Positions 31,791 to 56,700 of a stretch of 64,000 bases of DNA are shown here, piece by piece. Position numbers and translations under genes: made by a program. Position 1 is the stretch's first letter, and every line of letters begins with the position of its first letter. Under the pieces are notes generated by a model, which saw nothing but the letters and a program-made list of their open reading frames with translations, was not told the origin of the DNA and ran no database searches. Origin of the DNA: a virus (lineage: Duplodnaviria; Caudoviricetes); IMG/VR virus record IMGVR_UViG_3300010998_000021, positions 47,468 to 111,467 of that record. One strand, given 5' to 3'.

Positions 31791-31934
31791 AAAATCGACG
31801 TTTTGGAAAACTATGATTTTTGCGTTCGGTTTTTTTAGTTTTTCAAAACATGAGAAATCTGCATGAGTCCGGGGATGCGCCGGATGATCGTGTTCTGGTT
31901 TTGGTTCTGGATAGTTGCGGAAAATATTTTTAAA

Positions 31935-32012
31935 ATTATTTTGTATTACCTATTGACAAATGATTTTCTGTAGTGTATTATAGCATCATAGCAAGTAACC
32001 AATATACACACA
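31935..32012 (+). promoter_or_regulatory. First early cassette promoter (inverted A-rich box, TTGACA-17-TATTAT, AGTAA..ATACAC leader)
   Basis: TTGACA at 31953. Similar promoters have -35 at 32779, 33795, 34583, 35571, 36968, 37953, 38925, 39982, 41030, 42350, 43638, 45063, 45540, 46487, 48473, 50008, 52535, 56701 and 57859. Confidence 0.85.
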
Positions 32013-32041
32013 AAAGCACATTTTATAGGGAGGTATTCACC

Positions 32042-32350
32042 ATGATTAAAACTACTATTTGCATCGGACTTCTTGACAAGGGCACCAAAAGACAGGAGAT
32101 CACAACACTTGAAGCTTTTAAGGTAGCAGCGAATATTTTCGCAGAGACTACAGGAGGCGCGACAATCACTGAAGGCACCGGTGTTTATACACATGATGAC
32201 GGTACAATCGTTATCGAGCCAACACTTGTATGTGTTATCTACGGCGCGAACACTGAACAGGTCGAGAGAGCAGCAAGCATGGCAAAAGTAGCGCTTAATC
32301 AAGAAGCCGTGACAATCGAAGTCACCGAGAGCAATTCAAGATTTTTCTAA
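32042..32350 (+). CDS. DUF3574/SAM-lyase-like protein
   Basis: IGL...GATITEGTGVYTH..G....EPT...A...K..LNQEAV pattern; SD GGGAGG. Confidence 0.55.
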   Translation: MIKTTICIGLLDKGTKRQEITTLEAFKVAANIFAETTGGATITEGTGVYTHDDGTIVIEPTLVCVIYGANTEQVERAASMAKVALNQEAVTIEVTESNSRFF

Positions 32351-32363
32351 ATCGGATCATAAA

Positions 32364-32396
32364 AGGGGATGCGCAAAGCATCCCTTCTTTTTTTTG
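32364..32396 (+). terminator. Intrinsic terminator, one of a series closing cassettes
   Basis: GGGATGC-gcaaa-GCATCCC plus T-run. Equivalents at about 33463, 34327, 35316, 36762, 38639, 39848, 41986, 43470, 44889, 47562, 48260 and 52068. Confidence 0.85.
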
Positions 32397-32856
32397 TAGC
32401 GCGATGGATGATTGTTTTTCAAAACGTGGGAATTTTGTTTTCTGTTTTTGAAAACCATCGTTTTATGCTATGGTTTTGTTTTGCAAAATCCTATTTTCCT
32501 GTTTTACGTTTTTGAAAACAAGATTTTTCTGCTACTGGATGATAGTTTTTAAAAACATATAAAAATTGCAGTCGTTTTTAAAAATGCCGATTTTCTGAAT
32601 CGTGGTTTGTGGTTTTTGAAAACTCAAAATTTTTGTTTATGGTTTTTAAAAATTCGATTTTCCTGTTGTGCTGCCAGAGCCGAGGATGGATACAATTTTT
32701 TGGCGTTTTAAAAAATATAGAGACTGGATAGCCGGATGATCTGAATCTAAACGAATTATAAATATTACAAAATAAATATTGACAAATAAAAGATGACCGT
32801 CTATAATGAATAACAAGTAAATGATATACACCATTTTCTTTAAGGAGGTGGCGATC

Positions 32857-33138
32857 ATGACAAGTAGACATTATAGACAGTATCGCAGAAGGCGCGAACG
32901 TGTTATCCGAGATATTGGACAGGGTACACCATATCAAGAATTTATAGTCGGTGATAAACTTCATGTGATTACTACAAACGCAATAATCATTATATACGGC
33001 GCGAAAGATCATACGTTAATCACCAAGCTAATTGCAAGACCAAACCAGATTAAGAAATATTATACCGATGGGAACTATCCGACAGAGATTATCGAGATCG
33101 CAAACCAGCACCAAAAAGCAGGATTGTACCACACTTAA
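32857..33138 (+). CDS. Hypothetical early protein
   Basis: SD AAGGAGG; own promoter. Confidence 0.7.
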   Translation: MTSRHYRQYRRRRERVIRDIGQGTPYQEFIVGDKLHVITTNAIIIIYGAKDHTLITKLIARPNQIKKYYTDGNYPTEIIEIANQHQKAGLYHT

Positions 33139-33171
33139 AAATAATACAAAATAACGCAGGAGGGAACGGCG

Positions 33172-33462
33172 ATGAGTAGAATATGGACACAAGACGAGAT
33201 CAAGAATCTCGTACAGACAAACGACAGAGTTTTATATGGTGCATTAAGGCAATTATACGCTTGCCAGACTGCCGATGAAATAGCAGAAGGCGCAGCGAAT
33301 CACAGAAACGGCGCAGGATTTAACGGCATTGATGCCCCGTTGCTTACAAGTTTTTGCGAGTTCCTCAATAGAACAGGATTTTTAACACCAAAGCAAAAAG
33401 TAATCGCACGAAAGAAACTTGTTAAATATACAAGACAGCTAACAATGTTAGCCAACGCCTAA
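33172..33462 (+). CDS. Conserved phage hypothetical protein
   Basis: QTADE...H.NG.GFN..DA..LTS...KQ...KY..QL; SD; terminator follows. Confidence 0.7.
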   Translation: MSRIWTQDEIKNLVQTNDRVLYGALRQLYACQTADEIAEGAANHRNGAGFNGIDAPLLTSFCEFLNRTGFLTPKQKVIARKKLVKYTRQLTMLANA

Positions 33463-33865
33463 AGGGATGCAGAGTCATCCCTTTTATTTTTGCGGAAAAT
33501 CGCAGAAAATCCACGTTTTGCAAAACGATGGAGTATTTGCAGAAATTCTCGATTTTGGAAAACTATAATCAGAAAATCCTTGTTTTGAAAAACAATCTTG
33601 TTTTGATTATGGTTTTTGAAAACTTGATTTTTCTGTTTTTTGCAGTTTTGAAAAACAATATTCATGCATTGATAGTTTTGGAAAATTCAACTTTTCTGCT
33701 ATCAGATTGCAGATTTTCCTGTTTTTGGAAAACTATAATAATCCGTTATGGATCATGCCGGAAAAATAATATTTAAAATAATACAAAATAATTATTGACA
33801 ATATGGAAAATCTGATTATAATTAGAGTAGTAAAGCAAATACACATTGTTTCATGGAGGTGCATT

Positions 33866-34144
33866 ATGAATACTTATTATGATTCTTATGAAAACTATAA
33901 AAAATTTTTAGATGACCAAGTGGAAAGAGCAGCACATAACTTTCAGGAGGCAAAAGAAAAAGCAATCCGCGAACTTCAGGCGATGACCGTCTGGACTGCC
34001 AGCGAATACGGCGCAGGATATGCAAGTCAAATAGAAAAGATCACGAAGTATGCAACCGAATTACAGCAACTCGGATATCAGTATCGAGTATTCAACAATA
34101 TGTTTGAAGATGCTATCAAGAATGATAAAAATCAGGAGGAATGA
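33866..34144 (+). CDS. Hypothetical early protein
   Basis: SD GGAGGT; own promoter. Confidence 0.65.
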   Translation: MNTYYDSYENYKKFLDDQVERAAHNFQEAKEKAIRELQAMTVWTASEYGAGYASQIEKITKYATELQQLGYQYRVFNNMFEDAIKNDKNQEE

Positions 34145-34320
34145 TGATGGCTAAAACAAGCAAGGAATATTCGGAAATTCTGGAATCAGTATTAAGAATA
34201 CAGATTGGTTGTATCCGTTCAAATCCAAACTATGAAGATAGCGATTATTTACAAGGTCAGGAAGTCGGACTTTTAACGGCAATAGATAAGATCAAGGCAT
34301 CAAAATTTTTGACAGAATAA
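34141..34320 (+). CDS. Small hypothetical protein (not in ORF track)
   Basis: SD AGGAGG; open to TAA at 34320 just before the terminator. Confidence 0.55.
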   Translation: MMMAKTSKEYSEILESVLRIQIGCIRSNPNYEDSDYLQGQEVGLLTAIDKIKASKFLTE

Positions 34321-34665
34321 ATGAGAAGCGGAGAAATCCGCTTTTTCTTTTTGCCGTTCCGAAAATCTCCGTTTTCAAAAACCATAACAGAAAATCTGTA
34401 TTTTCAAAAACGATAGCGGAAAAATCTTGTTTTTAAAAACTAACATGTTTGGTCTTATTGTTTTGGAAAATTATATTTTTCTGTATGTCGTGATGTCGTG
34501 GTTTTTCAAAACTGGAATTTATTGTGCGCCGTGATCGTGGCGCGGATGGAAAAATAAAATGGAAAATATTTTGTATTATCTATTGACATGCGGAAAATCT
34601 GGTGCTATACTACACACATAGTAAATGATATACACAACACACAAGCATATCAGGAGGAAAACGCC

Positions 34666-35004
34666 ATGACTAATGAAATGATTATCTTTATAAAAAGATG
34701 TGAATTAATGGAGCAGGGGATCATCGGCGGTACTGGAAGATTTGTTGAAATTGAAATCAATGATGAACTCAGAAGACTCGAAGAGCCGGAAGAGATTCAT
34801 ACTTATGAATATTGGAAAAAGATCGGGTACCAGGTCAGAAAAGGTGAGAAATCACAGATTAAATTCACGATCTGGACATACAAAAAAGGAAAAGCGCAGA
34901 TAGATGAGGAAACAGGCGAAGAAGTCAGCAAAGGAAGATTATATCCTCGTCAGGCATCATTTTTTACAATCGCGCAATGTGACAAAAAAGTAATCGCAAA
35001 TTAA
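34666..35004 (+). CDS. ArdC N-terminal-like ssDNA-binding domain protein
   Basis: HTYEYWKKIGYQVRKGEKS...IW...FFTIAQ motif. Confidence 0.7.
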   Translation: MTNEMIIFIKRCELMEQGIIGGTGRFVEIEINDELRRLEEPEEIHTYEYWKKIGYQVRKGEKSQIKFTIWTYKKGKAQIDEETGEEVSKGRLYPRQASFFTIAQCDKKVIAN

Positions 35005-35082
35005 ATGTTCGATGGTCAGTGTCAATCGCAGCATTGACACTTTCCATGAAACATTTAAACACAATACAAGGAGGAAAAAATC

Positions 35083-35304
35083 ATGAAGTATATTGTTATT
35101 TATGACAGTGGCATAAGTCGTTTTTATGGTGATATGGAAGTTGAATACATGAAAGTTAATATTGATGGTGTAGGACTTTATGCGGAATTTCCGGCAATTA
35201 AAGGAAACGAACATGCCACATATGGAGCGTTAAAGAATCATATTATCGGTCAGGCAAGATATCACAAGATCAATCCCGAATGTCTGGAATTTCCGAATAA
35301 ATGA
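35083..35304 (+). CDS. Hypothetical early protein
   Basis: SD AGGAGG; terminator follows. Confidence 0.6.
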   Translation: MKYIVIYDSGISRFYGDMEVEYMKVNIDGVGLYAEFPAIKGNEHATYGALKNHIIGQARYHKINPECLEFPNK

Positions 35305-35641
35305 ATCAGAGAACGGAGCGCAAAATGCGCTCTTTTCTTTTGCGCATCCACATGAAAAATGGTTTTCAAAAATTAGGAAAAATTGCGACAGCCATACAGA
35401 AAATATTGATTTTGAAAAATCATAATAAAACGAATATCGTTTTTGAAAAATGGAATTATTTGTGTTGGTTTTTGAAAATTAAAGAAATCTGCATAGCAGA
35501 AAAATCCTGTTTTAAAAAATAATATATATATCAGGATCGCCAGAAATTTAAAAATAATACAAAATAAATGTTGACAGCATTAACTATATGGTGTATAGTG
35601 TATTTAACAAGTAAAACACGTACATAAATAAGGAGTACACC

Positions 35642-35809
35642 ATGAAAGCAAGTCAATTAATTATCGGTAACAAATACAGATCAACAGCATTTGCCCGAAA
35701 AGTCAAATTGATATCCATTGACAAAGTATGGGATGACGGTACGGCAAGTGTAACAGTCGAATATTACGGCAAATTATATTGTGATTGTTCATTTCGTTTC
35801 AGTATTTAA
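35642..35809 (+). CDS. Small hypothetical protein (not in ORF track)
   Basis: SD AAGGAG after the promoter at 35571; 55 aa. Confidence 0.55.
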   Translation: MKASQLIIGNKYRSTAFARKVKLISIDKVWDDGTASVTVEYYGKLYCDCSFRFSI

Positions 35810-35816
35810 ATAATCG

Positions 35817-35883
35817 ATGTGGCTGATGGTTATTGATTCAGTCGTTCGGAAGTCCGGCGATCACGTTCGATTCGTGACCACAT
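35817..35883 (+). ncRNA. tRNA-like mini-structure
   Basis: ATGTGG/CCACAT closing stem, two inner hairpins and a perfect T-arm TCACG-TTCGATT-CGTGA. Confidence 0.4.
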
Positions 35884-36307
35884 ATTTAAAAAATATCCTT
35901 GGCAGTTCCACAAACACAAAGCACAATGCAATGATGGAGGGCTTGCCAATGAATAATGATACGCCTGTTATTGTAATCATATACATCTATGACGAAGATA
36001 GCGGAAAACTTACGGCAATAGTAAATGTTTACTATATTTAAGTAAGGGATATAGGGTTTTGGATATTTCCCTATATCTGGCGTATACATTGGAAAATCTG
36101 AAAGGAGTAAACCAATGAGAACAGCAGAACAAATCGCAGAGAAATTAAGAAACAGTGATTCATGGAGTTATGTTGATTGTAAAGAACTATGCAAACAAGC
36201 CGGAATCAACCTTGTTTGGGGCAGTTGCTACGATGATTTGAAGCCTGTATATAAAGCAGCGGAAATTTTACATGTTAAGATAGATTAATTATCAGAAGGA
36301 GCATACC

Positions 36308-36532
36308 ATGTTAGATATTGGAAAAGTCGGCATCGTAAAATACGGAGAAAAAGTTAATCATCTATTTTATGATGGTGCGGAAAGATCATATGGTATCTAT
36401 CAGGATGATTGCATTTATACAGTGGATGTGCATTACAAGAATCAGGATAGATATAATGATCGTTTTGTTGCAAGCGATTTAGGAACGGCGTTTCAAATGA
36501 TCGAAGCAATGGAAAACGGTGAGGAGGTCTAA
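36308..36532 (+). CDS. Hypothetical protein (shares VGIVKYG with the ORF at 43127)
   Basis: SD AAGGAG. Confidence 0.6.
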   Translation: MLDIGKVGIVKYGEKVNHLFYDGAERSYGIYQDDCIYTVDVHYKNQDRYNDRFVASDLGTAFQMIEAMENGEEV

Positions 36533-36533
36533 T

Positions 36534-36722
36534 ATGAAAAAGATTTATAAAGCATATTTCGTTAAAGAAATGAACTCATACAGGTTGTATGATCCAGAAA
36601 ATCCGCAACAAACAATCGCATATTTCGATGCGGATGAACTGGAAATAGCAAAAAGACGAGTGAAGCATGAGCTTTCCGACTTGCGGAATGGGATCATTGC
36701 CGAGCTTGTCATTGAAAATTGA
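36534..36722 (+). CDS. Hypothetical protein
   Basis: SD GAGGAGG. Confidence 0.55.
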   Translation: MKKIYKAYFVKEMNSYRLYDPENPQQTIAYFDADELEIAKRRVKHELSDLRNGIIAELVIEN

Positions 36723-37039
36723 CTACTATCTCAATTCGTTGTGTGTGTTGTGTGTAGGAGAACAGGGCGAGAAATCGTCCTGTTTTCCATCTTGTGCGGA
36801 AAATTGTTTTTGAAAATGCGGAGAATCTGAAAGCGGAAAATTACGATTTTTAAAAACAATAAACAAATTATTTATGTTTTCAAAAACCACAATCGAAGAG
36901 TTTGTTTTTCAAAACTGAAATTATCCGCGCCGAGTTTCTGAAAAATATAAATAATACAAAATAATAGTTGACAACCACAAGAATCAATGCTATCATATAT
37001 TCAGTAAATGAAGTACACACAAACACGGAGGGAAAAGTC

Positions 37040-37339
37040 ATGGCATGGAATAGAAAAAGAACCATTGATTTCTGTAATGAAGAAATCTTTCCACAGGTAC
37101 ATTTTTCACAGTGGATCGGATTGAAGGGCGAGTTAATGGATGTAGTCAAGATGGTTGAACAGTACCGCCGGACACATGGATTTGTGGAAAATCTGAAAGC
37201 TAAAGTTGTTGATGGTTTTCTGTATCTGAATAATGATCCTGTTGGAAGAATCGCAATGAAAAAGCAGACAGCAGCAAACAACTATAATGATGGTGCTTAT
37301 TATTGGGAAGGTCGCATTCTGGCAAGACAGGGAATGTAA
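37040..37339 (+). CDS. Hypothetical early protein
   Basis: SD GGAGGG; own promoter. Confidence 0.65.
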   Translation: MAWNRKRTIDFCNEEIFPQVHFSQWIGLKGELMDVVKMVEQYRRTHGFVENLKAKVVDGFLYLNNDPVGRIAMKKQTAANNYNDGAYYWEGRILARQGM

Positions 37340-37352
37340 AGGAGTGGAAAAT

Positions 37353-37589
37353 ATGACAGATGCCGTAAAAAATGAAATTGAAAAGTGCAGGACTAAGAAA
37401 CAGGTAATGGATATTTTACGGAAAAATCACACAAATGTTATCAGAGATACATCCGATGAAGTCGGGTGTTTCTCTGTTTGGGTAGACGAGACAACAAGAA
37501 TATATAAACCAAAAGGAAGAAATATGACAGTTCAGAAATGGAATAAGGTTAATATGTCTTATTCTGGTATTCCTGTATTCTTTGGTTAA
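37353..37589 (+). CDS. Hypothetical protein
   Basis: SD AAGGAG. Confidence 0.6.
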   Translation: MTDAVKNEIEKCRTKKQVMDILRKNHTNVIRDTSDEVGCFSVWVDETTRIYKPKGRNMTVQKWNKVNMSYSGIPVFFG

Positions 37590-37600
37590 GAGGTGTTACT

Positions 37601-37933
37601 ATGGAAAATTTGAACGATGTTTATGCAGTTGTAGGATATGATAAGAAAGTGATTGATATATTGGAAAATTTCGATGATGCGTATGATTTAGCAGAATACT
37701 ATCATGCAGAATGCATAGAAACTTTAGAAGGCACAGACGGTGACAGGGTTTATGTATATCCAATGGATTACGGCGAACATAATTTTTTAAAACAAAAAAT
37801 AATTGCTATTGCTTTACTTCTTATTTCTGCGTTTTCCGTACCGCTTACGGATGGAGATATTACTTTTTTATTATTTATGGTTATGTTTATTGGATACTTA
37901 TTCTTTTCAAAAGAATACTGGATCAATGATTAA
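37601..37933 (+). CDS. Hypothetical membrane protein
   Basis: Two C-terminal hydrophobic segments. Confidence 0.6.
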   Translation: MENLNDVYAVVGYDKKVIDILENFDDAYDLAEYYHAECIETLEGTDGDRVYVYPMDYGEHNFLKQKIIAIALLLISAFSVPLTDGDITFLLFMVMFIGYLFFSKEYWIND

Positions 37934-38021
37934 TAAATAATACAAAATAAAATTGACAATACCGCGCAAAGGTGCTACCATATACATAGTAAATGATATA
38001 CATATTTAAGGAGGCATAGCC

Positions 38022-38354
38022 ATGAATAAAGTTAGAGCATTATCTTGTGAGATTTTCACTAATAAATCTTATGGAAATTGCAGCAATAACGGGATCAGCA
38101 ATAGATATAAAGAAGTATACGTACTTTGTGATGATGGTAATGTTGTAATTGATTTAGACAATCCACCTGAAAATCTTGTGGTATTTGAAGCAAGGGATTA
38201 TGGATTTACAATATCATTACGCTTCAAGCCGTATAGTTCCCTGACTGATGGAAAATGGTATATGTTTGGAGGCGATTTTGTCTGGTGTTGTGATAGCAGA
38301 TTTAGAGAAGTTTACGGTCATTATCCTATTCCGCTTCATGATCGCGTGGAATAA
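38022..38354 (+). CDS. Conserved phage hypothetical protein
   Basis: CSNNGIS...MFGG.F....DSRF...PIPLHDR.E; SD AAGGAGG. Confidence 0.7.
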   Translation: MNKVRALSCEIFTNKSYGNCSNNGISNRYKEVYVLCDDGNVVIDLDNPPENLVVFEARDYGFTISLRFKPYSSLTDGKWYMFGGDFVWCCDSRFREVYGHYPIPLHDRVE

Positions 38355-38357
38355 ATA

Positions 38358-38639
38358 ATGCAAGATAAGGAGGAAATTATGAATAAAGTTGATTGGTTTG
38401 AATTGTGGTACATGGATAAACAGGCAATGCTGGAAACTATGACTCGTGTTATGGTTTCAGATTTAAACGCCGGATATAACTATTTTGGTGAATGCATCAC
38501 AAAGCAAAGAGAATACATTGACAAATTCAAAAAGGAATTTGAGGATCAGCTAATGGCATTTCACGAGATGGATGAAGGCAAAAGAAACAGATGGTGCTAT
38601 TATGATTTACTGAGAAAAGGTGCAATAAGTATAAGATAA
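38358..38639 (+). CDS. Hypothetical protein
   Basis: SD AGGAGG before the second ATG; terminator follows. Confidence 0.6.
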   Translation: MQDKEEIMNKVDWFELWYMDKQAMLETMTRVMVSDLNAGYNYFGECITKQREYIDKFKKEFEDQLMAFHEMDEGKRNRWCYYDLLRKGAISIR

Positions 38640-38997
38640 AGCGGAGGAATCCGCTTCTTTTTTTGTTCACAATAATTAATAATTTTCAAAAACAACATAC
38701 GCAAGAAATCATCGTTTTGAAAAACCATACGCATACAAGAAAATCGTGTTTTTAAAAACAATAAACAAAATATTGAATTTTGGAAAACAAATATATTCTA
38801 TAATCGTTTTTCAAAACTGATTATTTTAGTTGCCGGAAAACATATTTTCGTGATTTTCAAAAACAAAAGTATGCGCCAATCCGAAAAGGCGTTTCAAAAA
38901 ACAAATATTATTTTGGATTAATTATTGACAAATAACCGACATGATGGTAATATAATTACAGCACGTAAACGATATACACAATTAAAAGGAGAAAGTC

Positions 38998-39273
38998 ATG
39001 TTAGTTAGTAGATATATTATTGATGGGAATAGAAAACGTGTAGCTGCCGAGATCACAAGAGAAACAAATGGAAAGTATTACATTATGTATAATCCGAGAA
39101 CATGCCCTTGGTACGGCGGTTATTATGACACGCTTCAGGCAGCAGAGCAGATCGTAGAAAGATTAAAGCCAAAAGCAAAGAAACTCAATAGCATTTGCTT
39201 TAATTGTAAAGCAAAATGCAATGGAACTACTGAACAGGTATGGACAGGCTGCGTTAATAGGGTAACGAAATAA
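38998..39273 (+). CDS. Hypothetical protein with C-terminal Cys cluster
   Basis: CFNC...C...WTGC; own promoter. Confidence 0.6.
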   Translation: MLVSRYIIDGNRKRVAAEITRETNGKYYIMYNPRTCPWYGGYYDTLQAAEQIVERLKPKAKKLNSICFNCKAKCNGTTEQVWTGCVNRVTK

Positions 39274-39287
39274 AGGAGGGCAAAACT

Positions 39288-39857
39288 ATGTTATACACCA
39301 AAAAAGATATTGATAAGCTGTTTACCGATGTTGTTGCCGGATTCATTGCTGATGGCGCAATGTTTAATTTAAAAAAGAACAATTATTCCTCAAGTGAATA
39401 TGATTCTCACATAGACTTGATTAATAAGAATGGGGAAGGAATTGTAATCTTTAAAAAGACTGGAAGAAATGAAGCATTCAGGTCTTACAGAAATGGTATA
39501 TGCGTGATTAAAGCCAGAAAGTACAGATACATGAATGATTTCTACTGTGACATGATAGAAGAAAAAACAGTTTATACTATTTACCAGTATCATAATATTT
39601 TCACGGATGACATTGATGAACATAATAGAATGGTTGAAAAGGGCAATGCAAGGAGAAAAGCAAGATGGGATTTTGAACATAGTAACTATGAAGTCAAATA
39701 TGATCCGAGTGTAATTCTAAATATTGTACGCCAAAGAAAAGGATTTAAGCGCACAAAACAGGAACATATTATGTATGTCCATAAGTATGATAAAGATTAT
39801 CATATCTGTATCAACAATGGGCGCAAGCATGAAATCATAGTTATTAAGGGAGTCTGA
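39288..39857 (+). CDS. Hypothetical protein
   Basis: SD AGGAGG; terminator overlaps the stop. Confidence 0.65.
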   Translation: MLYTKKDIDKLFTDVVAGFIADGAMFNLKKNNYSSSEYDSHIDLINKNGEGIVIFKKTGRNEAFRSYRNGICVIKARKYRYMNDFYCDMIEEKTVYTIYQYHNIFTDDIDEHNRMVEKGNARRKARWDFEHSNYEVKYDPSVILNIVRQRKGFKRTKQEHIMYVHKYDKDYHICINNGRKHEIIVIKGV

Positions 39858-40132
39858 TGACTCCCATTTTTTATGGCGCAAATTTATTTAATTTTGAAAA
39901 ACATTAATAGGTGATCTTGCGCAGCAATAAATCCATTTTTGAAAAACAATAAATAAACCAAAATATATTTTAAATTATGTATTGACAAGCATCTGGATGT
40001 ATGTTATATTCTATACAAGTAAACGAGATACACAACACGCACAGTCTAATAAAACGGTTGATTGACGAGCCTTGCGCCGTTGGTTGATTGAAAACAGATT
40101 GTAGTTAAGATTTAATATAGGAGGATAAAGCA

Positions 40133-40480: not shown

Positions 40481-40492
40481 TAGGAGGTATAT

Positions 40493-41557: not shown

Positions 41558-41571
41558 AAGGGGTTGATGCT

Positions 41572-47956: not shown

Positions 47957-47972
47957 TAATAGAGGTGAGTTA

Positions 47973-48541: not shown

Positions 48542-48733
48542 ATGGATTATTACATCACAAAAATCATTGGAAACGACAGAACTATATTAAGTAAGCATAG
48601 TAATCTTGATGATGCTCTAAAAGAAGGCGAATCAAAGTATAAGGAACTGAAATGCACCATTGACTGTATCAGCGGTGAAATTGATAACAAAGGGAATATT
48701 AATGGCAAGTACAGGGTATATAAGGTATGGTAA
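48542..48733 (+). CDS. Small hypothetical protein
   Basis: SD GGGAGG; own promoter. Confidence 0.6.
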   Translation: MDYYITKIIGNDRTILSKHSNLDDALKEGESKYKELKCTIDCISGEIDNKGNINGKYRVYKVW

Positions 48734-48853
48734 TAAATACCAGTATATGAATGAAACCTAATTTATAAATAATGCAATATAATACATGTAAAGGATGCAA
48801 ATAAGGTGTTATTATATAAATATAGTAAATAATACAAATTGAAGGAGATCAAA

Positions 48854-49990
48854 ATGAAATTTGAAATTAATGGTACAGAATTTAAAAATCTCGTAGGCAG
48901 AATCAGCGCACTTGTTCCAAAGAAATCATCGCTTTATTTTCTGGAATGCGTCAAGATTACGGCAGACGGAAATTATATAACATTACAAGCATCTGATTCA
49001 AATGATTATGGAACTATCAAAGTACGAGCCAATGTTTTTGAATCTGGCTGCGCATGGGTACACATCACTGACTTGAATAAGGTAATTGGAATATCTGATT
49101 ACATAACAATTACTGCAAACAACGCACGTTTTGAAGTCCGTAGCAAAAAGAAAAGTTATGAAGTTAAATACTATGATTACTCGGATGAACAGTATGAGTA
49201 TTTAGATACAAAAAATAATCCAATGTGCCTACTTGGTGATATGCATCTATTAAATCATCTTTCAAAACTCGATTGCATGAGAGAATCATCTAATATTGGG
49301 AATCCTCTTATTCAGTCTTTTTGTCTTGATTTGCCAAAAGGAAAAATTGTAGCATTAAATGGACACATGGTTGGAGTAGCTAACATTTCTGGTACAATCA
49401 TTAATCCGGCAAAGCCACTCAATATAAGTGGAACTATCTATAAGAAGATCAAAAGCATTATTGGAAAAACAAAAACAGAAACCACTGTCGCAATTTCCGC
49501 TGATGATAAAGTTGTAAAATTCGCTGGAGAAGATTGGACTCTTGTATCAAGATTGATTGATGGTAAGTTTTGGGATTATGAACATTTATTTAACGGAGAT
49601 TATGATTATTCGTATAGAATAGACCATAATGAATTGAAGAATATCGCAAAAGAATATGCAAAAGCAATAGGACGCGAGAAAATTCCAATGATTATATATT
49701 CAAAAAATGGCATGGTAGCTACTGGAGTACAAGTTGGAAATTATAAAACGTCTGATTTATTGCAGATCGTTAATCCTGAATATGGAATGGAAAATGAAGA
49801 ATTTAGTCAAGGATTTAACGCATCGTATATATATAATACTTGCAACGTGTTTGATGATGAGGCGGTTGTTAAAGGAAGTTACAAAAGAACATCTCCAATA
49901 GTATTTGAGAATGAAACATACAAGGTTATGATTCTTCCTGTAAATATCGGGGATCATGAAATAGGGTTTGTTGAGAAGCAGATTGCATAA
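48854..49990 (+). CDS. Divergent DNA polymerase III beta-clamp-like protein
   Basis: 378 aa; MKFEI...L....LQASD, VALNGH, SRLIDGKFWDY, GFNASYI, VMILPV match the DnaN layout. Confidence 0.75.
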   Translation: MKFEINGTEFKNLVGRISALVPKKSSLYFLECVKITADGNYITLQASDSNDYGTIKVRANVFESGCAWVHITDLNKVIGISDYITITANNARFEVRSKKKSYEVKYYDYSDEQYEYLDTKNNPMCLLGDMHLLNHLSKLDCMRESSNIGNPLIQSFCLDLPKGKIVALNGHMVGVANISGTIINPAKPLNISGTIYKKIKSIIGKTKTETTVAISADDKVVKFAGEDWTLVSRLIDGKFWDYEHLFNGDYDYSYRIDHNELKNIAKEYAKAIGREKIPMIIYSKNGMVATGVQVGNYKTSDLLQIVNPEYGMENEEFSQGFNASYIYNTCNVFDDEAVVKGSYKRTSPIVFENETYKVMILPVNIGDHEIGFVEKQIA

Positions 49991-50074
49991 ATAAAACAAA
50001 ATAATTGTTGAATAGGTGTAAAATATATGCTATCATTAATAGTGTATATTTTGCATCTGAAAGTAGGTGATTAT

Positions 50075-50695
50075 ATGAATGCTGCTGAAGTTATTCTTGA
50101 GATACAGAAGTTATATGATAAAAGAACAAGAGAAGAAATATTGTCCAATCTCAATATTGCTATAGCACTCGGAAAAGCAAAAGGGTTAGCGGTTGACAGA
50201 TATAGGACATTGCCAAAAATAACAAATAGATCAAAGCATTCCGTCATGTCTTGGTTTAATAGACCTGACAAGAAGATTCCTCTAATTGACCTTTGCATGA
50301 TAGCCAAATATCTTAATTACAATATTTTTGCGTTTTTCACAACGAAGGAAAATTGCAATATAACAAAAGAAGATTTTTTGGTTGCAAATGACTATAATAA
50401 TTATAATTTTCCTGTTGATGCTGCGGATATTTTCATTCGTGGCTTTAATCTGCAATATGATACCGACAAAGATATTGTATTAAATAACTTGGAAAAATTC
50501 TATGGAACATCTAAACAGGTACTTGAACATCACTCAAAAGATCGTCAAGTAAGAATTATGAAAGTTTGTGGTTGCACAAAAGAATCTTATCGTTCTTGGT
50601 TTAATCGAAGCCGGAAAAATGTTCGGATTCCATTAATACCATTATGCAAAATGTCTATTGATGCAAACATTGAATTTTTTAGTTTATTCGTATGA
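50075..50695 (+). CDS. Tandem duplicated HTH-like protein
   Basis: Internal repeat SWFNRPDKKIPLIDLC / SWFNRSRKNVRIPLIPLC. Confidence 0.55.
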   Translation: MNAAEVILEIQKLYDKRTREEILSNLNIAIALGKAKGLAVDRYRTLPKITNRSKHSVMSWFNRPDKKIPLIDLCMIAKYLNYNIFAFFTTKENCNITKEDFLVANDYNNYNFPVDAADIFIRGFNLQYDTDKDIVLNNLEKFYGTSKQVLEHHSKDRQVRIMKVCGCTKESYRSWFNRSRKNVRIPLIPLCKMSIDANIEFFSLFV

Positions 50696-50766
50696 ATAGA
50701 CGGTATATGGCGTTATATAAATAAAACAAAATAATACATGAATATTAATTAGAAAGGTTAAAAATA

Positions 50767-51552
50767 ATGGCAGAAAATAGTTTTGATAATATCTCGTTGC
50801 CGGAAGAAAATTTAACACCACAAGAATACTTTGCTGTTGTGAAAGAAAGAAAATCTAAAGCAACAGATAAGCAGTTGATGGCAATTTATGATAACTGCTT
50901 GGAACTTCTTAATAAGTATAAGATCACAGGTCAATATAAAGGTGCAGCAAAATTAATTTTCCATCTTGAATGCATAGAGAAAGAACTTGAAATTGTTCGG
51001 ATGGGGATTGATACATTTGTATATCGTGATGACATTGAATACTACATAGACAATGTTGCATCTGACGTTGTTAAAATTATCGAATTGGAAAATTATCAGC
51101 GCGAGATACCTGATGAAATAGTAGATGTAATAGCGAAAGTGAAAGACAAATTCGATCAGTTATATGTTGTATTCACTGACTATACTGGTGAAGCAGAACG
51201 TCAAGTGGAAAAGGAAAGAATAGCAAAAGACCCTATTCTTTTTGGAACATTTCAGAGTCCAAAAGACAATGTTGTAATAGATCGCTTTTATTATCTTGGC
51301 GATTGGGTGGATGAGTATTGTAATTTAACACTTGATAAGATGGTTAATGAAACAAATAGAGAAATCCATAGGAAAATTGAACATACCATAAAAACACCAG
51401 ATGATATAGCGGAATTAAAAGAGCAGATCAATAGTCTTATTGCTAATAATAATGGTAATAGATTTACCGTAGATGAATCAAACAAAAAGAAGTCATTTTT
51501 CAGCAGTATCAAATCATTTATATCAAGAAAGTCTAAAGTCTTTTCATTTTAA
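50767..51552 (+). CDS. Conserved phage hypothetical protein
   Basis: 261 aa; LENYQREIPDE...VFTDYT...DPILFG...YLGDW.DE. Confidence 0.65.
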   Translation: MAENSFDNISLPEENLTPQEYFAVVKERKSKATDKQLMAIYDNCLELLNKYKITGQYKGAAKLIFHLECIEKELEIVRMGIDTFVYRDDIEYYIDNVASDVVKIIELENYQREIPDEIVDVIAKVKDKFDQLYVVFTDYTGEAERQVEKERIAKDPILFGTFQSPKDNVVIDRFYYLGDWVDEYCNLTLDKMVNETNREIHRKIEHTIKTPDDIAELKEQINSLIANNNGNRFTVDESNKKKSFFSSIKSFISRKSKVFSF

Positions 51553-51713
51553 GGGGATGAACAATATATGAATATTTGTCCTTATACAGAAGAAAAATGC
51601 AAATCAAATGATTGTACGAAGTGTAAGATTTATTTTGAATCTGAATACGGTTGTGACGGAAAATGCAGTAAATGTGAGGATTCTGATTTTTGTGACCATT
51701 TAGGCAAGAGGGA

Positions 51714-52082: not shown

Positions 52083-52605
52083 GTTCAAGGCTTTTTGTCG
52101 TGCAAATAAAAATAGTTTTGAAAAACAATAGTTGTCTTAGAAAATAGTTTTTCAAAACATGTATTTTTTTGTGCGCAAAAATACTAAGTTTTTAAAAACA
52201 ATAATAGAATAACGAGGCAGTACACAGCAATACTCTGCTTAAAAAAATCTGTAGTCCTGATGCCGACTGACACACAAAAAGGGCATTGAACTCGTGACTG
52301 GCGAGAATAAATAAACAAGTGGTGGTTATCTGATGTGGGATACCGTCATTAGCCAAGGGCAGATATTTGGCTTACAAGCGGTAACTAATGTACTCCGAAG
52401 CGTCCGAATGAACGTAGTAGAACATTATCCTCCTGTTAGGGGGAAAACTATGCCAACCGAGCGGATGCCGATGAACGTAGCACATTGTAATATGATTGTC
52501 AATAAATAAAACAAAAAAATAATTGAATTACTTATTGACAAGCAGTAAATGATGTGCTATCTTATAATCATACAAAACACATAACACAGATAGGAGGGAA
52601 ATAAG

Positions 52606-53520
52606 ATGGCAGCAAGAGCATTGAAAATCTGGAATGAAGGCGAAAGAACGAATATATTCCAGTTAAGAGTGAATGATAGTATTTGCACATCAAATAAAAA
52701 GAAGGGGCGTAAATCTGAAGTGTATCCGTTTCAACTTGAGGATGCCAAAAAGATGATCGCATACTTTGAAGAACATGATATGTGGGTACAGTATTTACTC
52801 TTTGTTGTTGGAATCAACATGGCAAGGCGTGTAGGAGATACACTTACGCTTACATGGGAGCATATTTACAATCCGGCAAACGGTGAGATCAGAGATAACA
52901 TTCTTGAAATTACAGAAGATAAGACGGATAAATTGGCTAATCCAAAAATCAATAGCGCGGTTAGAAACGCAATCGCGCTTTATATAGAAAAGACTGGCGT
53001 TGATGTTACAGAAAATAATTATCATAATCCGATCTTTCTTCAGATGACAGGAACGCATAAAGGCAACGTAATAACCAGTGATGGTTATAGAAAAGCCTTA
53101 AAGAAAGCTGCTGATGCAGTAGGCATTACATATAATGTTGGTACACATTCCACAAGAAAGACATTCGGTATGATATCCAGAATGATTCATCCCAATGATT
53201 ATGACAGCATGGAATTACTACAGACAATCTATAACCATAGTGACACAAAAACTACAAGCCACTACATCGGACTTACAAAACAAAAAGTAGATCAGTATTA
53301 CGATGATATGGGCAAGTTCTTTAATGACTATGTTACTGGTAACAAGGAATATAAAGATGTTTCTGAAAAGCCTGTCATTAATGTAGAGGTATCTGATTTA
53401 AGAGATATTATTGCAATGGCTTATGCTGAAGGACAGCAGAATGCAAACATCAAAGACGCAAGCAAGCACATCGAAACAATCAACGAGATTATGAATATTG
53501 TAGATTCTCTTACTAAGTAA
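52606..53520 (+). CDS. Tyrosine recombinase with intact catalytic residues
   Basis: RRVGD (R), EDKT (K), HSTRK (HxxR), YNHS (H), TSHYIG (Y). Confidence 0.9.
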   Translation: MAARALKIWNEGERTNIFQLRVNDSICTSNKKKGRKSEVYPFQLEDAKKMIAYFEEHDMWVQYLLFVVGINMARRVGDTLTLTWEHIYNPANGEIRDNILEITEDKTDKLANPKINSAVRNAIALYIEKTGVDVTENNYHNPIFLQMTGTHKGNVITSDGYRKALKKAADAVGITYNVGTHSTRKTFGMISRMIHPNDYDSMELLQTIYNHSDTKTTSHYIGLTKQKVDQYYDDMGKFFNDYVTGNKEYKDVSEKPVINVEVSDLRDIIAMAYAEGQQNANIKDASKHIETINEIMNIVDSLTK

Positions 53521-53632
53521 TAAATAATATAAAATAATACATGACGAACACAATGAAACGTGGTAACATATAAGCAAGTAAACACAAAGCACAAACTTAT
53601 ATGTTACCAACATGATTAAGGAGGGAAATAAG

Positions 53633-54720
53633 ATGGCACTTAACAAAGCTAATATCACATGGAGTTGCAAGCAGATCGCTAAGATGGCTGGAAACGGAAC
53701 ATTCACTTTTGATAATATCATTCAGAGATCGTATGTATGGGAGCAGAAAAGAAAAAGTAATCTTATCCATTCTCTCATTGAAGGATTTCCTGTACCGCCA
53801 TTTTACGAAAAAAAGTAGATGGAAGAGTGTATGATTTTCTTGATGGGAAACAGAGAATCAATGCTATCCGTGGCTACATTGAGAATGAATATTTCTTGAT
53901 CGGTACACCTGAAGCAGAGGTTACATATACGGATGCAAACGGCGAAGAGCAGACCGCATGGATTGATGGAAAATACTTCAAAGACCTTCCTGAAGAGTTG
54001 CAGGATGCTATTAAGGATTATCACCTGACAATCTATTACTATGAAAATATCACACCTGAACAGGTTCGGATGCTGTTTGCGAAGCTGAATAACGGAAAAC
54101 CGCTTTCTGCAAAAGAGAGAAACATTGCTAACTGCGTTGACATCGTTACAGTTTCCGAGATTGGTAAGCATGAACTGTTTGCGGAAATTCTCACAGATAA
54201 GGCACTTGCAGCGAGAAGACATCTTCCTATCATTATGAAAATCTGGATGATGCTGAATAATGATATTGATGATGTATCTTTTGAAAGTAGCGAGTTCAAT
54301 GGGGTTATGCAGGAAACTATCATGACGGAAGACGAAAAAGCCGAGGTTGAAAAGGTTCTGGATAGAATCTATGCAATCTATAATGAACTTGAAAACTATG
54401 AGAATGCAAAGAAGGCAAAAGCTGTTAGGAAGAAGATGACTTCTGAAACACACATGGTTTCTCTTGTTCCTTTTATTGAGTATGCTATAACTGATAACAT
54501 CACGGATGTTGAGATGGCTGAATTTATGGTTAGGCTTTTCGGAAATGGAGTTCTCGTATCTGATGAGTATGCAGACGCTTGCAAAGGTGGATCGGCTAAA
54601 AACGTCAATATCAAGAGAAGGAATAATGAAATTGAAAAGGTATGGTTTGCATTTATCAACGATAACTCTTTTGTAGAGGAAACGGAAGATGATGAAAACC
54701 ATGATTGCAACGATTTCTAA
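53633..54720 (+). CDS. DUF262 (ParB/Srx-fold, GmrSD-N-like) protein split by a -1 frameshift at 53809-53815
   Basis: IQRSYVW...LIHSLIEGFPVPP in one frame; FLDGKQR...FAKLNNGKPL in the -1 frame; junction GAA AAA AAG TAG. Confidence 0.8.
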
Positions 54721-54732
54721 TGCATAATAATT

Positions 54733-54763
54733 ATGGTGTATCACTTAACTGTGGTACACCATA
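54733..54763 (+). terminator. Hairpin after the DUF262 gene
   Basis: TATGGTGTATCAC-ttaact-GTGGTACACCATA; no T-run. Confidence 0.4.
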
Positions 54764-54785
54764 ACGATTAAAGAGGAGATCACAA

Positions 54786-55094
54786 GTGAGCAATATTGAT
54801 TGGACTAAGTATTTTATAGGTCTCGATTATGAAAAGGAAAAATTATTTATAGGAGTTGGAAAATTAAAAAACAATGGAATGATTCAGTTTTTAAAAAAAT
54901 CAGATGATCGCACAGTTGAAATAATCAATGCGGTTGGAAGATTCTTAAAAATGAAACTTAACAAAAGCAAGAAGAATTATTTTGGTTATGATTTAAATAG
55001 GATTGGCAAACTTGTATTGATTAAACATGGATATGATTTTGAAGTGTTTAAGAAAAGGAAGGACACCATAACAAGACCTATTCAAGATTTCTGA
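54786..55094 (+). CDS. Hypothetical basic protein upstream of mazF
   Basis: SD GAGGAG, GTG start. Confidence 0.55.
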   Translation: MSNIDWTKYFIGLDYEKEKLFIGVGKLKNNGMIQFLKKSDDRTVEIINAVGRFLKMKLNKSKKNYFGYDLNRIGKLVLIKHGYDFEVFKKRKDTITRPIQDF

Positions 55095-55115
55095 TATTAG
55101 ATTGGAGGCTTAAAT

Positions 55116-55574
55116 ATGTCAACAACAAAATCTATGGAAAAATTGAATACGAAAATGACTTTCTTTATTAACTATGATGGTGAAAATGTAAGTTATATTG
55201 ATTCGGAAAATCATAGTATATGTTGTTGTGATATTTGGATGGCTTCTTTACCAAGTAACAATGGTAGCATACAGAATGGGCATAGACCAGTTCTTATAAT
55301 ATCTAATAACAAGAATAATAAATATAGTACAGTTGTCAATGTAATACCAATGACAACCAAGATGAACAAAAGGCATTTGCCTTGCCACGTTTCTATATGG
55401 GATTACAAAAGGTTTGGACTATATGCGCCAAGTACGATCATGGTAGAGCAGATTACGACTATCCCAAAAGATAATTTAAAATATTATATGGGAAGAATAG
55501 ATGATGAAGCTATTCTGCTTGATATTTATGAAGCAATAAGAACGCAATTTCCAATTTTAGATAATGCAAAATAA
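55116..55574 (+). CDS. mazF: PemK/MazF-family endoribonuclease
   Basis: DIWMASL....GSIQNG.RPVLIISNN..N..S..V.VIPMTT...LP.HV...S.I..EQITTI.K. Confidence 0.85.
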   Translation: MSTTKSMEKLNTKMTFFINYDGENVSYIDSENHSICCCDIWMASLPSNNGSIQNGHRPVLIISNNKNNKYSTVVNVIPMTTKMNKRHLPCHVSIWDYKRFGLYAPSTIMVEQITTIPKDNLKYYMGRIDDEAILLDIYEAIRTQFPILDNAK

Positions 55575-55636
55575 GGCAGGATATTGACACTTTCAAATTT
55601 TTGTGATACATATTTATTATGGGTGGAGGTGTCATT

Positions 55637-56614
55637 ATGAACACAAAGGAATTGCTTGATGAATATTTTAAAACAAAGCCAGAATCTACGACTGCTAAAA
55701 CAAGAGGGCAAATTGACAGGAAGGAGTTATATGCCTATGAGAAAAAGATAGGGAAACAGCTCGTTGATATGGACTGTTTTGAAATAGCTGATATGCTAAA
55801 ATCGTTCAGTAACCAAGTGTTTACTAAAAAGACTTATAAAATGTCATATCGAACATATGATTTCCTATTGACTATTTTGCGTGATTTCTTTGAATGGTAT
55901 ATTGATAATTATAAAATCATTAAAAATCCTTGCAACGATAAACGAATAAGAGGAAGAAATGCAATTAAAATTTTCAATGATACCAGTGAAGCATTTACTA
56001 AAGAATCTATGGAAGATTTGATTGCAAATATTAGAAATAGCACTTTAGAAGAATATGCTGATTATGAAGAAGCAATTATCAGAATGTTTTACGAAGGATT
56101 TCCAGAAGCAATAGATATAGTTAATTTGAAATGCAGCGATATGAATCACGAAAAGAAAACAGCTATTGTAAGGGGTAGAGAAATACAACTTTCAGATCGT
56201 CTTTATGAACTGCTTGTTAAAATTCATAATATGGATGAATATCCGGCTTATCGTGGATCGTATCTATTATTAAGTTACAGAGATTCATATTTTAAATTTC
56301 CTACAAGGGAAAGTTTTAAAAATGAATTTCAAGATAGACCACCTGAATATTGGGCTGGACATATTTCACGATTATTTAATCGAGATATTAAAGTAAAAAA
56401 TGATATAAATATAAACGCAAGGACACTATATCTGTGTGGCTTCTACGATTATATTGTTGATAGGGTTGGAAAGGAAGAAGCTAACAGGCTTATCTATTCT
56501 ATTCGTAATACAGAAGATACAAAGAAACTAATGGGTCTTGCAGAAGAGTATGGTATTACAGAGCAGAATGTAACAACGCTTAAAAAGATTCTTGTTCCTT
56601 TTGTGCAAGAATGA
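55637..56614 (+). CDS. Catalytically degenerate tyrosine-recombinase-fold protein, MrpR(YopR)-like repressor candidate
   Basis: N-terminal core-binding domain (LRDFFEWY...NPC); IRMFYEG...IVNLK..D lacking the catalytic R and HxxR; own promoter near 55585. Confidence 0.6.
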   Translation: MNTKELLDEYFKTKPESTTAKTRGQIDRKELYAYEKKIGKQLVDMDCFEIADMLKSFSNQVFTKKTYKMSYRTYDFLLTILRDFFEWYIDNYKIIKNPCNDKRIRGRNAIKIFNDTSEAFTKESMEDLIANIRNSTLEEYADYEEAIIRMFYEGFPEAIDIVNLKCSDMNHEKKTAIVRGREIQLSDRLYELLVKIHNMDEYPAYRGSYLLLSYRDSYFKFPTRESFKNEFQDRPPEYWAGHISRLFNRDIKVKNDININARTLYLCGFYDYIVDRVGKEEANRLIYSIRNTEDTKKLMGLAEEYGITEQNVTTLKKILVPFVQE

Positions 56615-56622
56615 AAATGACT

Positions 56623-56648
56623 ATCATGACCGCTTCGGCGGTCATGGT
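56623..56648 (+). terminator. Strong hairpin after the repressor-like gene
   Basis: ATCATGACCGC-TTCG-GCGGTCATGGT. Confidence 0.6.
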
Positions 56649-56700
56649 AATTACATATAAATAATACAAAATAATTCATTGAATATTCATCATATTATTG

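Follow-up and report, generated by a model that had tools for sequence, protein, structure and literature searches.

A multi-promoter early gene array in an SPbeta-like phage of the ruminant gut, probably controlled by an MrpR/SroF-like repressor and bounded by PeSL-like sites of exchange

The subject of this report is a stretch of 64,000 nucleotides (the window) at the end of one virus record of 111,467 bp (IMGVR_UViG_3300010998_000021), and within it a gene array at 31.9-52.6 kb in which about 17 units follow one another, each made up of an A-rich box (A-box), a near-consensus sigma-A promoter, a conserved leader box, open reading frames (ORFs) and usually a terminator. Positions refer to the window unless stated otherwise. 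Our preferred reading, to which we assign a probability of about 60%, is that the region is a multi-promoter early regulon of an SPbeta-like phage under an MrpR/SroF-like repressor, with exchange boundaries that resemble the PeSL (promoter-early stem-loop) modules of T4-type phages. It behaves like a commonly regulated, slowly shuffling gene array and is not an integron, because the units carry their own promoters, their order is nearly fixed, and the recombinase encoded nearby is a core gene whose presence does not depend on the palindromes that lie between the units.

In the proposed mechanism, the A-box together with the -35 element would form a putative operator of about 25 bp for the repressor encoded by gene 55619, so that the units would be jointly silent in the lysogen. 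The second box, located between the -10 element and the ribosome-binding site, may be a second operator or an element of the 5' untranslated region, and the tandem palindrome units that follow the terminators are putative binding sites of a sequence-specific factor that insulates or silences the units. Since the regulatory modules recur about 20 times, they could act as portable boundaries, at which units would be lost, replaced and exchanged between phages by general recombination rather than by a dedicated integrase.

The repeated order of box, promoter, leader, ORFs and terminator in about 17 units had been proposed in an earlier reading of the DNA made without database searches (the sequence-only reading), and the count bears it out: 17 promoter modules lie between 31953 and 50008, 15 of them with the leader AGTAAA..ATACA(C) 2-11 nt after the -10 element. 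In a promoter scan of 31000-50999, the nine sites that agree with the consensus at 11 or more of 12 positions are all on the + strand. The A-box (AAATAATACAAAATAA) is 16-18 bp long, non-palindromic and set at a fixed distance of 3 nt upstream of the -35 element. With up to three mismatches it has 46 matches in the window, as opposed to 9.3 +/- 2.9 expected (0 of 100 shuffles reached 46), and the 15 copies with at most one mismatch on the + strand extend from 32760 to 56659. Most units end in an intrinsic terminator; nine intergenic terminators were found by the scan, and terminator-like sites number 25 against 9.6 +/- 4.0 expected.

The array is followed downstream by a gene cluster in which the candidate regulator is encoded. 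An A-box and a promoter precede gene 55619 (55559-56614, +), whose product of 331 amino acids has a predicted recombinase fold without the catalytic set; no invariant R..HxxR..H..Y set is found among nine homologues. When the structural model (predicted local distance difference test score, pLDDT, 87) was compared with the PDB using Foldseek, the seven best matches were all YopR/MrpR/SroF (8bj6, 8bpz, 9rgl, 9rd5, 8a0a; E 4.8e-9 to 2.2e-6), including SroF with DNA and SroF with an antirepressor, and they ranked above the Tn1549, lambda, Xer and Cre recombinases. The sole PHROG match of the protein is phrog_1 (1.6e-9). Judged by its predicted fold, the 55619 protein is an MrpR/SroF-like putative master repressor. 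Passages of the MrpR study (PMC10516654) report 10 peaks in chromatin affinity purification sequencing (ChAP-seq), at SPbeta promoters bearing the SPbeta repeated element (SPBRE), and SroF is described in a preprint as a monomer on a non-palindromic A/T-rich box of 24-26 bp with sites spread genome-wide (bioRxiv 10.1101/2025.11.27.690993). The SPBRE copies that we extracted from SPbeta lie just upstream of the -35 element or between the -10 element and the ribosome-binding site, and they have the core ATACAAA(A/T)AAT in common with the A-box of the window, which is why the A-box is regarded, by analogy, as the most likely candidate operator of the 55619 protein. Neither aimR-aimP-aimX nor a Sar antirepressor appeared among the Pfam and PHROG matches, although no search aimed at them was made.

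The remainder of the genome has the architecture of SPbeta. The first large gene of the late arm (26284-28953, -) encodes an 889-amino-acid protein that matches Pfam RdRP (PF05183, E 1.2e-7); in tblastn searches it matched 24 Bacillus SPbeta-type records, Clostridium phage c-st and Enterocloster phages, and it is therefore assigned to the YonO-type two-barrel RNA polymerases. The gene has 44 relatives in IMG/VR. The gene order follows that of SPbeta, with yonN-yonO-yonP, the opening point, yonR and the early cluster, and yopP-yopQ-yopR, and the layout of YonO late cluster, opening point, early cluster, tyrosine-recombinase-like gene and repressor is the same in all eight complete relatives compared. 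The recombinase 52606 and the MrpR-like 55619 are core genes found in nine of nine complete relatives, where both invariably lie downstream of the array. Parts of the array were found in 20 public runs from 13 studies, and the labelled runs among them are bovine, sheep or unspecified gut metagenomes. The large genome appears to be that of a temperate SPbeta-like phage of a ruminant-gut Firmicute, with Lachnospiraceae-type Firmicutes of the rumen as candidate hosts, and four of the related IMG/VR records carry a provirus classification. The analogy with SPbeta and MrpR drawn in the sequence-only reading is thus borne out by both the layout and the fold of the 55619 protein. When the phage collection was searched with the whole region by megablast, nothing matched, and the exact pattern of A-box and -35 element occurred at seven loci in IMG/VR with a single match each, which means that there is no close relative there.

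The grammar is common in this phage group, and its boxes differ from lineage to lineage. Nine related records were compared whole, and 24 related records entered the palindrome count described below. Near-consensus promoters (at most one mismatch, early strand) number 13-33 per genome in nine genomes, and 1 and 3 in G001, which is cut in the array. The upstream box is lineage-specific (AAATAAGACAAAAA in G004, AAATTAAATCAGAAAAA in G008), as would be expected if it diverged together with the repressor, which is only 28-41% identical between lineages. The leader reads TGTCAAGAGGACA in G004 and TGTCAAAAGACA in G015. In G008, G011, G020 and G021 it is a perfect inverted repeat, TAGTAAATGAGTTACTA, which stands between the -10 element and the ribosome-binding site of many early promoters, while the upstream boxes of these four genomes all differ; the leader of the window has only the left half of this repeat in common with it.

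The spacers between the units contain a palindrome, GTTTTNNAAAAC (GTTTT-NN-AAAAC), which occurs 68 times in the window with at most one mismatch, as opposed to 8.4 +/- 2.9 expected, and 58 of these 68 sites lie within 30693-52199. Sites of the form RTTTTNNAAAAY number 53 in 31800-52500, all but two of them (51) in the 27% of the DNA that is non-coding. The palindromes form tandem units in 12 spacers, with a modal spacing of 29-30 bp, and the copies per spacer drop with distance from the strand-switch region (10, 7, 5, 4, 4, 7, 2, 3, 1, 2, 3, 3; at most one mismatch). All nine scan-detected intergenic terminators have a palindrome 13-31 nt past the stem, whereas the nine unit junctions without a terminator have no palindromes save a single weak site. 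Three sites at 52115-52199 make up the last cluster, which some 400 bp separate from the start of the recombinase gene (52606). Both the placement of the palindromes after terminators and their end just before the recombinase had been pointed out earlier and are thus confirmed. Beside the palindromes, the oriented motif CRGAAAAT occurs in 31000-52300 18 times on the + strand and 3 times as its complement, mostly next to spacer palindromes.

Palindrome richness is a trait of few records. Of the 24 records counted, four are rich in RTTTTNNAAAAY (G003 with 51, G004 with 35, G015 with 39 and G001 with 39), while the controls have 1-7 and the other records 1-16; among the complete relatives three of nine are palindrome-rich. 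G001 and G024 are 94-98% identical nearly genome-wide, and the palindrome arrays of G001 have no counterpart in G024, the two differing from the arrays onward. On a YonO tree the trait is scattered and needs four changes; support is poor because the YonO gene is split in G001, G021 and G024, where it is in pieces. On these sequence comparisons, the palindromes appear to be an add-on to an early-promoter grammar that is common in the phage group. Several explanations of the palindromes were tried and rejected. A CodY box was dismissed because the half-site spacing differs, and static curvature from A-tracts is unsupported because the spacings of the tracts show no helical phasing. The 222-amino-acid protein (50027) was rejected as a palindrome binder, as G003 and G015 lack it and palindrome-poor genomes have it, and the recombinase 52606 and the MrpR-like protein were rejected as palindrome-specific factors, both being core genes. 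The non-coding stretch 52200-52500 gave no structure signal (z -0.17), its sole Rfam match being a sub-threshold plant microRNA family, and Rfam at the gathering threshold had no match inside the array. In searches of the literature on MrpR/SPBRE, YonO, SroF and PeSLs, no described counterpart of terminator-linked palindrome arrays with two companion genes was found, although the palindrome motif itself was not searched for.

Exchange of units was followed by aligning contigs of four runs to 31700-51699, with short-sided joints (sides of 21-39 letters) set aside as matches between repeated motifs. The 45.6-kb contig of run X3 is collinear with the window except for a 64-bp deletion that takes out two palindrome units, another palindrome array changed from 134 to 75 bp, the loss of 140 bp from the ORF at 36115 (in X6 and X9 too), 453 nt in place of 40339-40857 (an ORF replacement of 518 by 454 bp, which X9 also has) and the replacement of the 4.6-kb block 42080-46667. 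Of three metagenome loci compared, L063 matches the window at 95.5% over 40857-42080, where a palindrome ends, is then divergent and resumes at 46465, the start of an A-box, at 91%; homology with L063, X3 and X6 alike stops at 42080. For the larger part of the array, L064 and L065 reach 66-88% identity with the window, and they contain a near-identical block of 95.5-96% (42224-45003 in L064; 42224-43236 and 43597-45912 in L065), which is a recent transfer that comprised two or three units. In one phage the block measures 2.8 kb at 95.5%, as opposed to 70-80% for the remainder. On its left, the block adjoins the recipient's own terminator, and the right edges coincide with the end of the palindrome 44981-44992 in L064 and the end of the A-box 45897-45912 in L065. 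The HNH gene that lies between two A-boxes in the window is missing from L065, whose 40493-like gene is relocated, the sole reordering seen. Among more distant genomes, the order of the common genes is kept, apart from minor departures in G024. Overall, 10 of 15 breakpoints fall in the 27% of the DNA that is non-coding (spacers or modules). Of the gain, loss and reordering of cassettes expected by the sequence-only reading, gain, loss and replacement were therefore seen, several of them with breakpoints at motif edges, but the order is collinear with one exception and the remaining breakpoints are in ORFs. Its comparison with the repeated early promoters of T4-type phages gains support from these gains, losses, replacements and block transfers with motif boundaries.

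Several observations weigh against the regulon reading or parts of it. By sequence, 55619 could not be linked to MrpR: tblastn in 50,697 phage records gave no match, and phmmer against PDB chains no relevant one. The leader box rather than the A-box could be the site of the repressor. As to exchange, 5 of 15 breakpoints lie inside ORFs, and the figure of 10 of 15 is inflated, as selection favours non-coding breakpoints and alignments extend through conserved motifs; the repeated modules, 60-80% alike over 41-110 bp, would serve homologous recombination poorly as substrates. At two places the remnant of a gene end abuts a palindrome edge, as after breakage at palindromes and not after simple homologous exchange. 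Finally, the A-boxes of the late arm often stand alone, 2-15 nt before the ribosome-binding site and without -35 or -10 elements, an arrangement that fits a promoter of the YonO-like RNA polymerase at least equally well. Taken further, this would make the A-box the promoter of that polymerase, so that the early units would have tandem promoters and the leader box would be the operator of the repressor, an alternative that we consider unlikely but that is to be taken seriously. The A-box is lineage-specific and gene-oriented across the genome, including late genes (29513-, 24527-, 15940-, genome 47456-, genome 2185+, 8486+), and the inverted repeat TAGTAAATGAGTTACTA of four relatives would make a plausible operator; the promoter recognition of YonO was still unknown according to a 2017 paper (PMC5467207). 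On the other hand, three A-boxes point against the gene that they precede (31951, 34581, 38923), at 38353 the ribosome-binding site begins at the end of the box and leaves little room for a transcript start, and a monomeric repressor of SroF type requires a long non-palindromic site and not an inverted repeat. The A-box, which had been read as part of a fixed grammar of the array, is thus neither confined to the array nor constant in orientation.

The remaining alternatives concern the palindromes. They could serve the genome end or origin, as iteron-, centromere- or packaging/ejection-like elements, rather than transcription. They flank DnaA boxes, their copies per spacer drop away from the switch region, about 38 of the 51 sites of G003 form a single tandem array of 1.8 kb beside that region, and many related contigs terminate 2-5 kb upstream of the YonO gene. 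This explanation is nevertheless rather improbable, since the sites of the window, of G004 and of G015 are spread over about 20 kb and tied to terminators, the late arm adjoining the origin has none, and no ParA/ParB or initiator gene was recognised among the Pfam and PHROG matches. An integron-like platform, in which the recombinase 52606 recombines the palindromes, or sites made up of them, to capture, excise and reorder cassettes, is the least probable of the explanations, even though the enzyme has the whole catalytic set and is encoded where the palindromes end, several homology breakpoints coincide with palindrome edges and two palindromes are directly joined to 3' gene remnants. The recombinase is present in all nine complete relatives, of which only three are palindrome-rich; the units bring their own promoters and terminators; and the palindromes occur in tandem in 1-10 copies and not as a single site per cassette. 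Their arms of 5 bp surround a 2-bp centre, whereas the core sites of tyrosine recombinases have crossover regions of 6-8 bp. Furthermore, the order is collinear in the comparisons with the single exception of the 40493-like gene in L065, and SPbeta has the positional counterpart yopP without such an array. Capture by the neighbouring recombinase, as the sequence-only reading had it, is thus not upheld. It is also quite doubtful, and somewhat more so than the genome-end explanation, that the palindromes and the adjacent genes 41078 (GGCT-like) and 41554 (a zinc ribbon of 144 amino acids) form one module, for instance for the site-specific binding, cleavage or base modification of T4-N2-A4 sites. 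Strong homologues of 41554 occur solely in the three palindrome-rich genomes among the nine complete ones, the trait is scattered on the YonO tree with the four poorly supported changes mentioned, and the Cys4, D, E and H residues of 41554 are invariant. However, the pair lies inside the array, so that its link with the palindromes could stem from common descent of a whole early region that was swapped, the roughly 170 genes were screened on a small sample, a 3-versus-6 split, and the fold matches are weak. A broader version, based on the same sequence comparisons, is that palindromes and GGCT-like/zinc-ribbon genes are a self-contained, mobile add-on to SPbeta-like early regions whose factor coats, cuts or modifies the arrays after the terminators, insulating or silencing the units and making break-and-join hot spots for the swapping of whole units among phages; we regard it as speculative and about as improbable as a role at the genome end, but the gene remnants joined to palindrome edges keep the break-and-join idea alive. 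If true, it would be a dedicated diversification of early and counter-defence genes, distinct from integrons and PeSLs, in which swaps sometimes leave 3' gene stumps.

Among known systems, SPbeta and phi3T with MrpR (YopR, SroF) and the elements SPBRE/Phi3TRE come closest. Common to both are a recombinase-fold repressor without the catalytic set that ends an operon with a tyrosine-recombinase-like gene, a YonO RNA polymerase with the layout of late region, opening point and early region, and a long, non-palindromic, A/T-rich repeated box at many promoters, upstream of the -35 element or before the ribosome-binding site. They differ in that the sequence similarity to MrpR is missing, that the window has about 25 or more boxes as opposed to the 10 ChAP-seq peaks (the boxes here being defined by sequence), and that it has 17 near-consensus promoters in 21 kb, while 42 kb of SPbeta early DNA have 3 such promoters and 0 palindromes (2 and 3 in the first 24 kb of Enterocloster phage PMBT24). 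For the second, conserved box in the leader and for the palindrome arrays, no equivalent has been described in SPbeta, and the end module of the window contains a MazF gene. The PeSLs of T4-type phages are, according to Arbiol et al., repeated modules of a strong promoter and a stem-loop that flank small ORFs and bound indels and replacements (Arbiol et al., 2010; PMC2839356). In the window too, repeated modules of a strong promoter and a terminator flank small non-core ORFs and bound the indels and replacements of relatives. The window phage is, however, a temperate, SPbeta-like phage of a Firmicute host and no T4-type myovirus, and its modules add operator-like boxes and separate palindrome arrays; the region thus functions like PeSLs without being a member of them. 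Comeau et al. reportedly also dealt with the PeSL cassettes of T4-type phages, in 2014. Integrons consist of promoterless cassettes behind a common promoter, with one attC of 57-141 bp per cassette. The window resembles them in its linear array of small, mostly unrelated genes near a tyrosine recombinase with inverted-repeat DNA in between, but its units are self-promoted (17 modules) and mostly have a terminator, its 12-bp palindromes are in tandem without attC-like single sites, and its recombinase is distal, co-oriented and kept in relatives without the repeats. The early modules of the virulent phages SPO1 and T5 are short operons with a strong host-type promoter and a terminator near the genome end, beside which T5 has DnaA boxes and repeats; to our knowledge they have neither master-repressor boxes nor arrays of T4-N2-A4 palindromes.

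The units are described here in their order, all modules being on the + strand. Module 1 (31936-32010) has an inverted A-box, the promoter TTGACA-17-TATTAT and a leader, and is followed by the largest palindrome array, with 10 sites (32414-32716). Module 2 (32760-32835) combines an A-box and leader with a promoter of 12/12 consensus matches, and the arrays on either side of module 3 (33776-33845) have 7 sites (33515-33733) and 5 sites in 29-bp tandem units (34371-34512). Module 4 (34566-34635), with an inverted A-box, drives the ArdC-N-like gene and is followed by an array of 4 sites at up to one mismatch, or 5 by a looser TTTT..AAAA scan (35362-35520). Module 5 (35552-35625) and the four sites at 36806-36915 precede module 6 (36949-37020), whereas module 7 (37935-38005) is preceded by neither a terminator nor palindromes. 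Seven sites (38682-38902) lie before module 8 (38908-38980), which again has an inverted A-box, and two palindromes (39891-39947), of which 39892-39936 is deleted in run X9, before module 9 (39951-40040). Module 10 (41011-41060) has no leader box. After it, the region 42069-42279 comprises a palindrome (42069-42080), a remnant at 42081-42170 and further palindromes at 42238 and 42268. The remnant corresponds to the end of a DUF6273-type gene, for instance 57921-58637, of which it has the final codons and the terminator hairpin (compare 58600-58700), so that the truncated gene end suspected next to the palindrome at 42080 proved real; in L064 a palindrome is directly joined to the 3' part of a 47889-like gene. 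Module 11 (42331-42400), with the -35 element TTGCAA, drives the DUF2786/DUF7168 gene, and two palindromes (43511-43569; 43511 at up to one mismatch, 43558 by the looser scan) separate it from module 12 (43617-43690), which has TTGCAT and belongs to repeat family D5. The two palindromes at 44934-44992, at whose end (44992) the 95.5% block common to L064 stops, precede module 13 (45044-45115) and module 14 (45521-45590). An HNH endonuclease gene (45928-46473, +) is bracketed by two A-boxes (45897-46483), of which L065, lacking the gene, has a single one. Module 15 (46468-46540), just after the right edge of the 4.6-kb variable block at 46465, drives the DUF932 gene, the array of three sites at 48294-48434 precedes module 16 (48454-48520), a sliding-clamp-like gene with an A-box-like element before it follows (48875-49990, +; PHROG 947, 7e-28), and module 17 (49989-50040), with TTGAAT, drives the 222-amino-acid protein, in which two repeated helix-turn-helix-looking stretches were seen by eye and which has no Pfam or PHROG match.

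Pfam and PHROG matches of the cargo are solid for DUF2786/DUF7168, DUF932, PemK/MazF and the clamp (PHROG 947), and most ORFs of the array belong to no known family. Of the cargo listed in the sequence-only reading, DUF2786, DUF932 and the clamp accordingly stand, ArdC-N is barely above its cutoff, and the SAM-lyase-like gene falls below it (18.6 vs 28 bits); an anti-defence cargo would rest on two weak or partial domain matches. The GGCT/AIG2-like gene (41078-41557, +; Pfam GGACT, 9.7e-14) is confined to palindrome-rich relatives, as is the neighbouring gene (41554-41988, +), whose 144-amino-acid product contains a CCESH motif besides an invariant zinc ribbon, CPxC..CxC. A phyletic screen of all ORFs of G000 singled out these two adjacent genes: no others were shared with G003, G004 and G015 while missing from five complete genomes that are poor in palindromes. 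When 24 records were searched, those three were the only ones with strong homologues of 41554 (E about 1e-34), the 20 palindrome-poor records giving 0 strong and two weak matches. The 41554 family is small and its homologues are all unnamed. Its model (pLDDT 85) has weak fold matches to TYW3-like proteins (Z 5.9-6.9) and to the C-terminal domain of T4 MotA (Z 4.6); Foldseek against the PDB gave nothing at E<=0.001, and the ESM Atlas yielded unnamed viral clusters alone.

The end module begins with an A-box, a promoter and the tyrosine recombinase gene (52606-53520; whole feature 52504-53520, +; Pfam Phage_integrase, 5.3e-12), the positional counterpart of SPbeta yopP, whose product keeps the full catalytic set (R74/R75, K106/K109, H181-x-x-R184, H211 and Y220, invariant in nine sequences). 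It continues at 53522-55574 (+) with an A-box and a promoter-like site, a split GmrSD_N/DUF262 gene (53612-53818 and 53827-54720), an ORF of 102 amino acids and MazF/PemK (55116-55574). The two GmrSD_N/DUF262 ORFs, of 68 and 297 amino acids, are in different frames and split at an A7 run near 53806, which could reflect a pseudogene, a slippage site or a sequencing error. The end cluster noted earlier is thus as described for the catalytically complete recombinase, MazF and the MrpR-like fold, but its DUF262 gene is not intact.

At the other end of the array, the strand-switch region (30200-31900) is probably the origin and/or the packaging (pac) region, as in SPbeta, whose genome opening point is placed between yonP and yonR in a preprint (bioRxiv 10.1101/2021.11.22.469490). 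The cumulative GC skew has its minimum at about 28-32 kb, where the genes diverge, and 21-bp repeats with the DnaA box TTATCCACA lie at 31273-31333; the relatives L016, L018 and L019 have seven DnaA boxes each at an exact spacing of 21 bp. These repeats are likely a replication origin that uses host DnaA. The first palindromes of this region are at 30693, 31050, 31228, 31800 and 31838. The DnaA boxes are separated from the first early promoter by a 450-bp stretch (31350-31800) that is nearly without A on the + strand and made of TCGTTCCTGTCGTT variants; its ORFs have no family match.

The left arm (1-30.2 kb, minus strand) contains portal, terminase-like and protease genes, an endolysin, many HNH homing endonucleases, three transfer RNAs, a group I intron and an HU-like protein, besides the RdRP-matching polymerase. 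The intron (Rfam, 71.8 bits) and several of the homing-endonuclease genes break up the structural arm (197-504, -; 4856-5797, 7455-8378 and 11839-12951, -). Also on the late arm, 21462-22904 (-) encodes a beta-CASP/RMMBL protein of metallo-beta-lactamase fold and RNase J/CPSF type, which might act on the conserved 5' leaders of the early transcripts. Elsewhere, the genome encodes Pol III alpha, ThyX, NrdD, a large serine recombinase and, on the late arm, a second tyrosine integrase, and an ORF of 2279 amino acids sits where SPbeta has its annotated tape-measure gene yomI (by position alone, without a family search). A reverse transcriptase (RVT_1) adjoins a BspA-LRR plus DUF6273 protein at G000 13109-15701 (minus; L001:13109-15701), and the pair may be a diversity-generating retroelement.

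The recombinase-fold repressor of SPbeta and its boxes were characterised recently and only in Bacillus phages, and the same logic would be found here, much expanded, in uncultured phages of the ruminant gut. Tens of near-consensus host promoters are set in a lineage-specific grammar of boxes, and units as well as multi-unit blocks pass between phages. The sites and proteins described here allow two questions to be posed, namely how a monomeric repressor would silence about 20 strong promoters, and whether regulatory repeats drive the turnover of early genes in temperate phages of Firmicutes as PeSLs do in T4-type phages.

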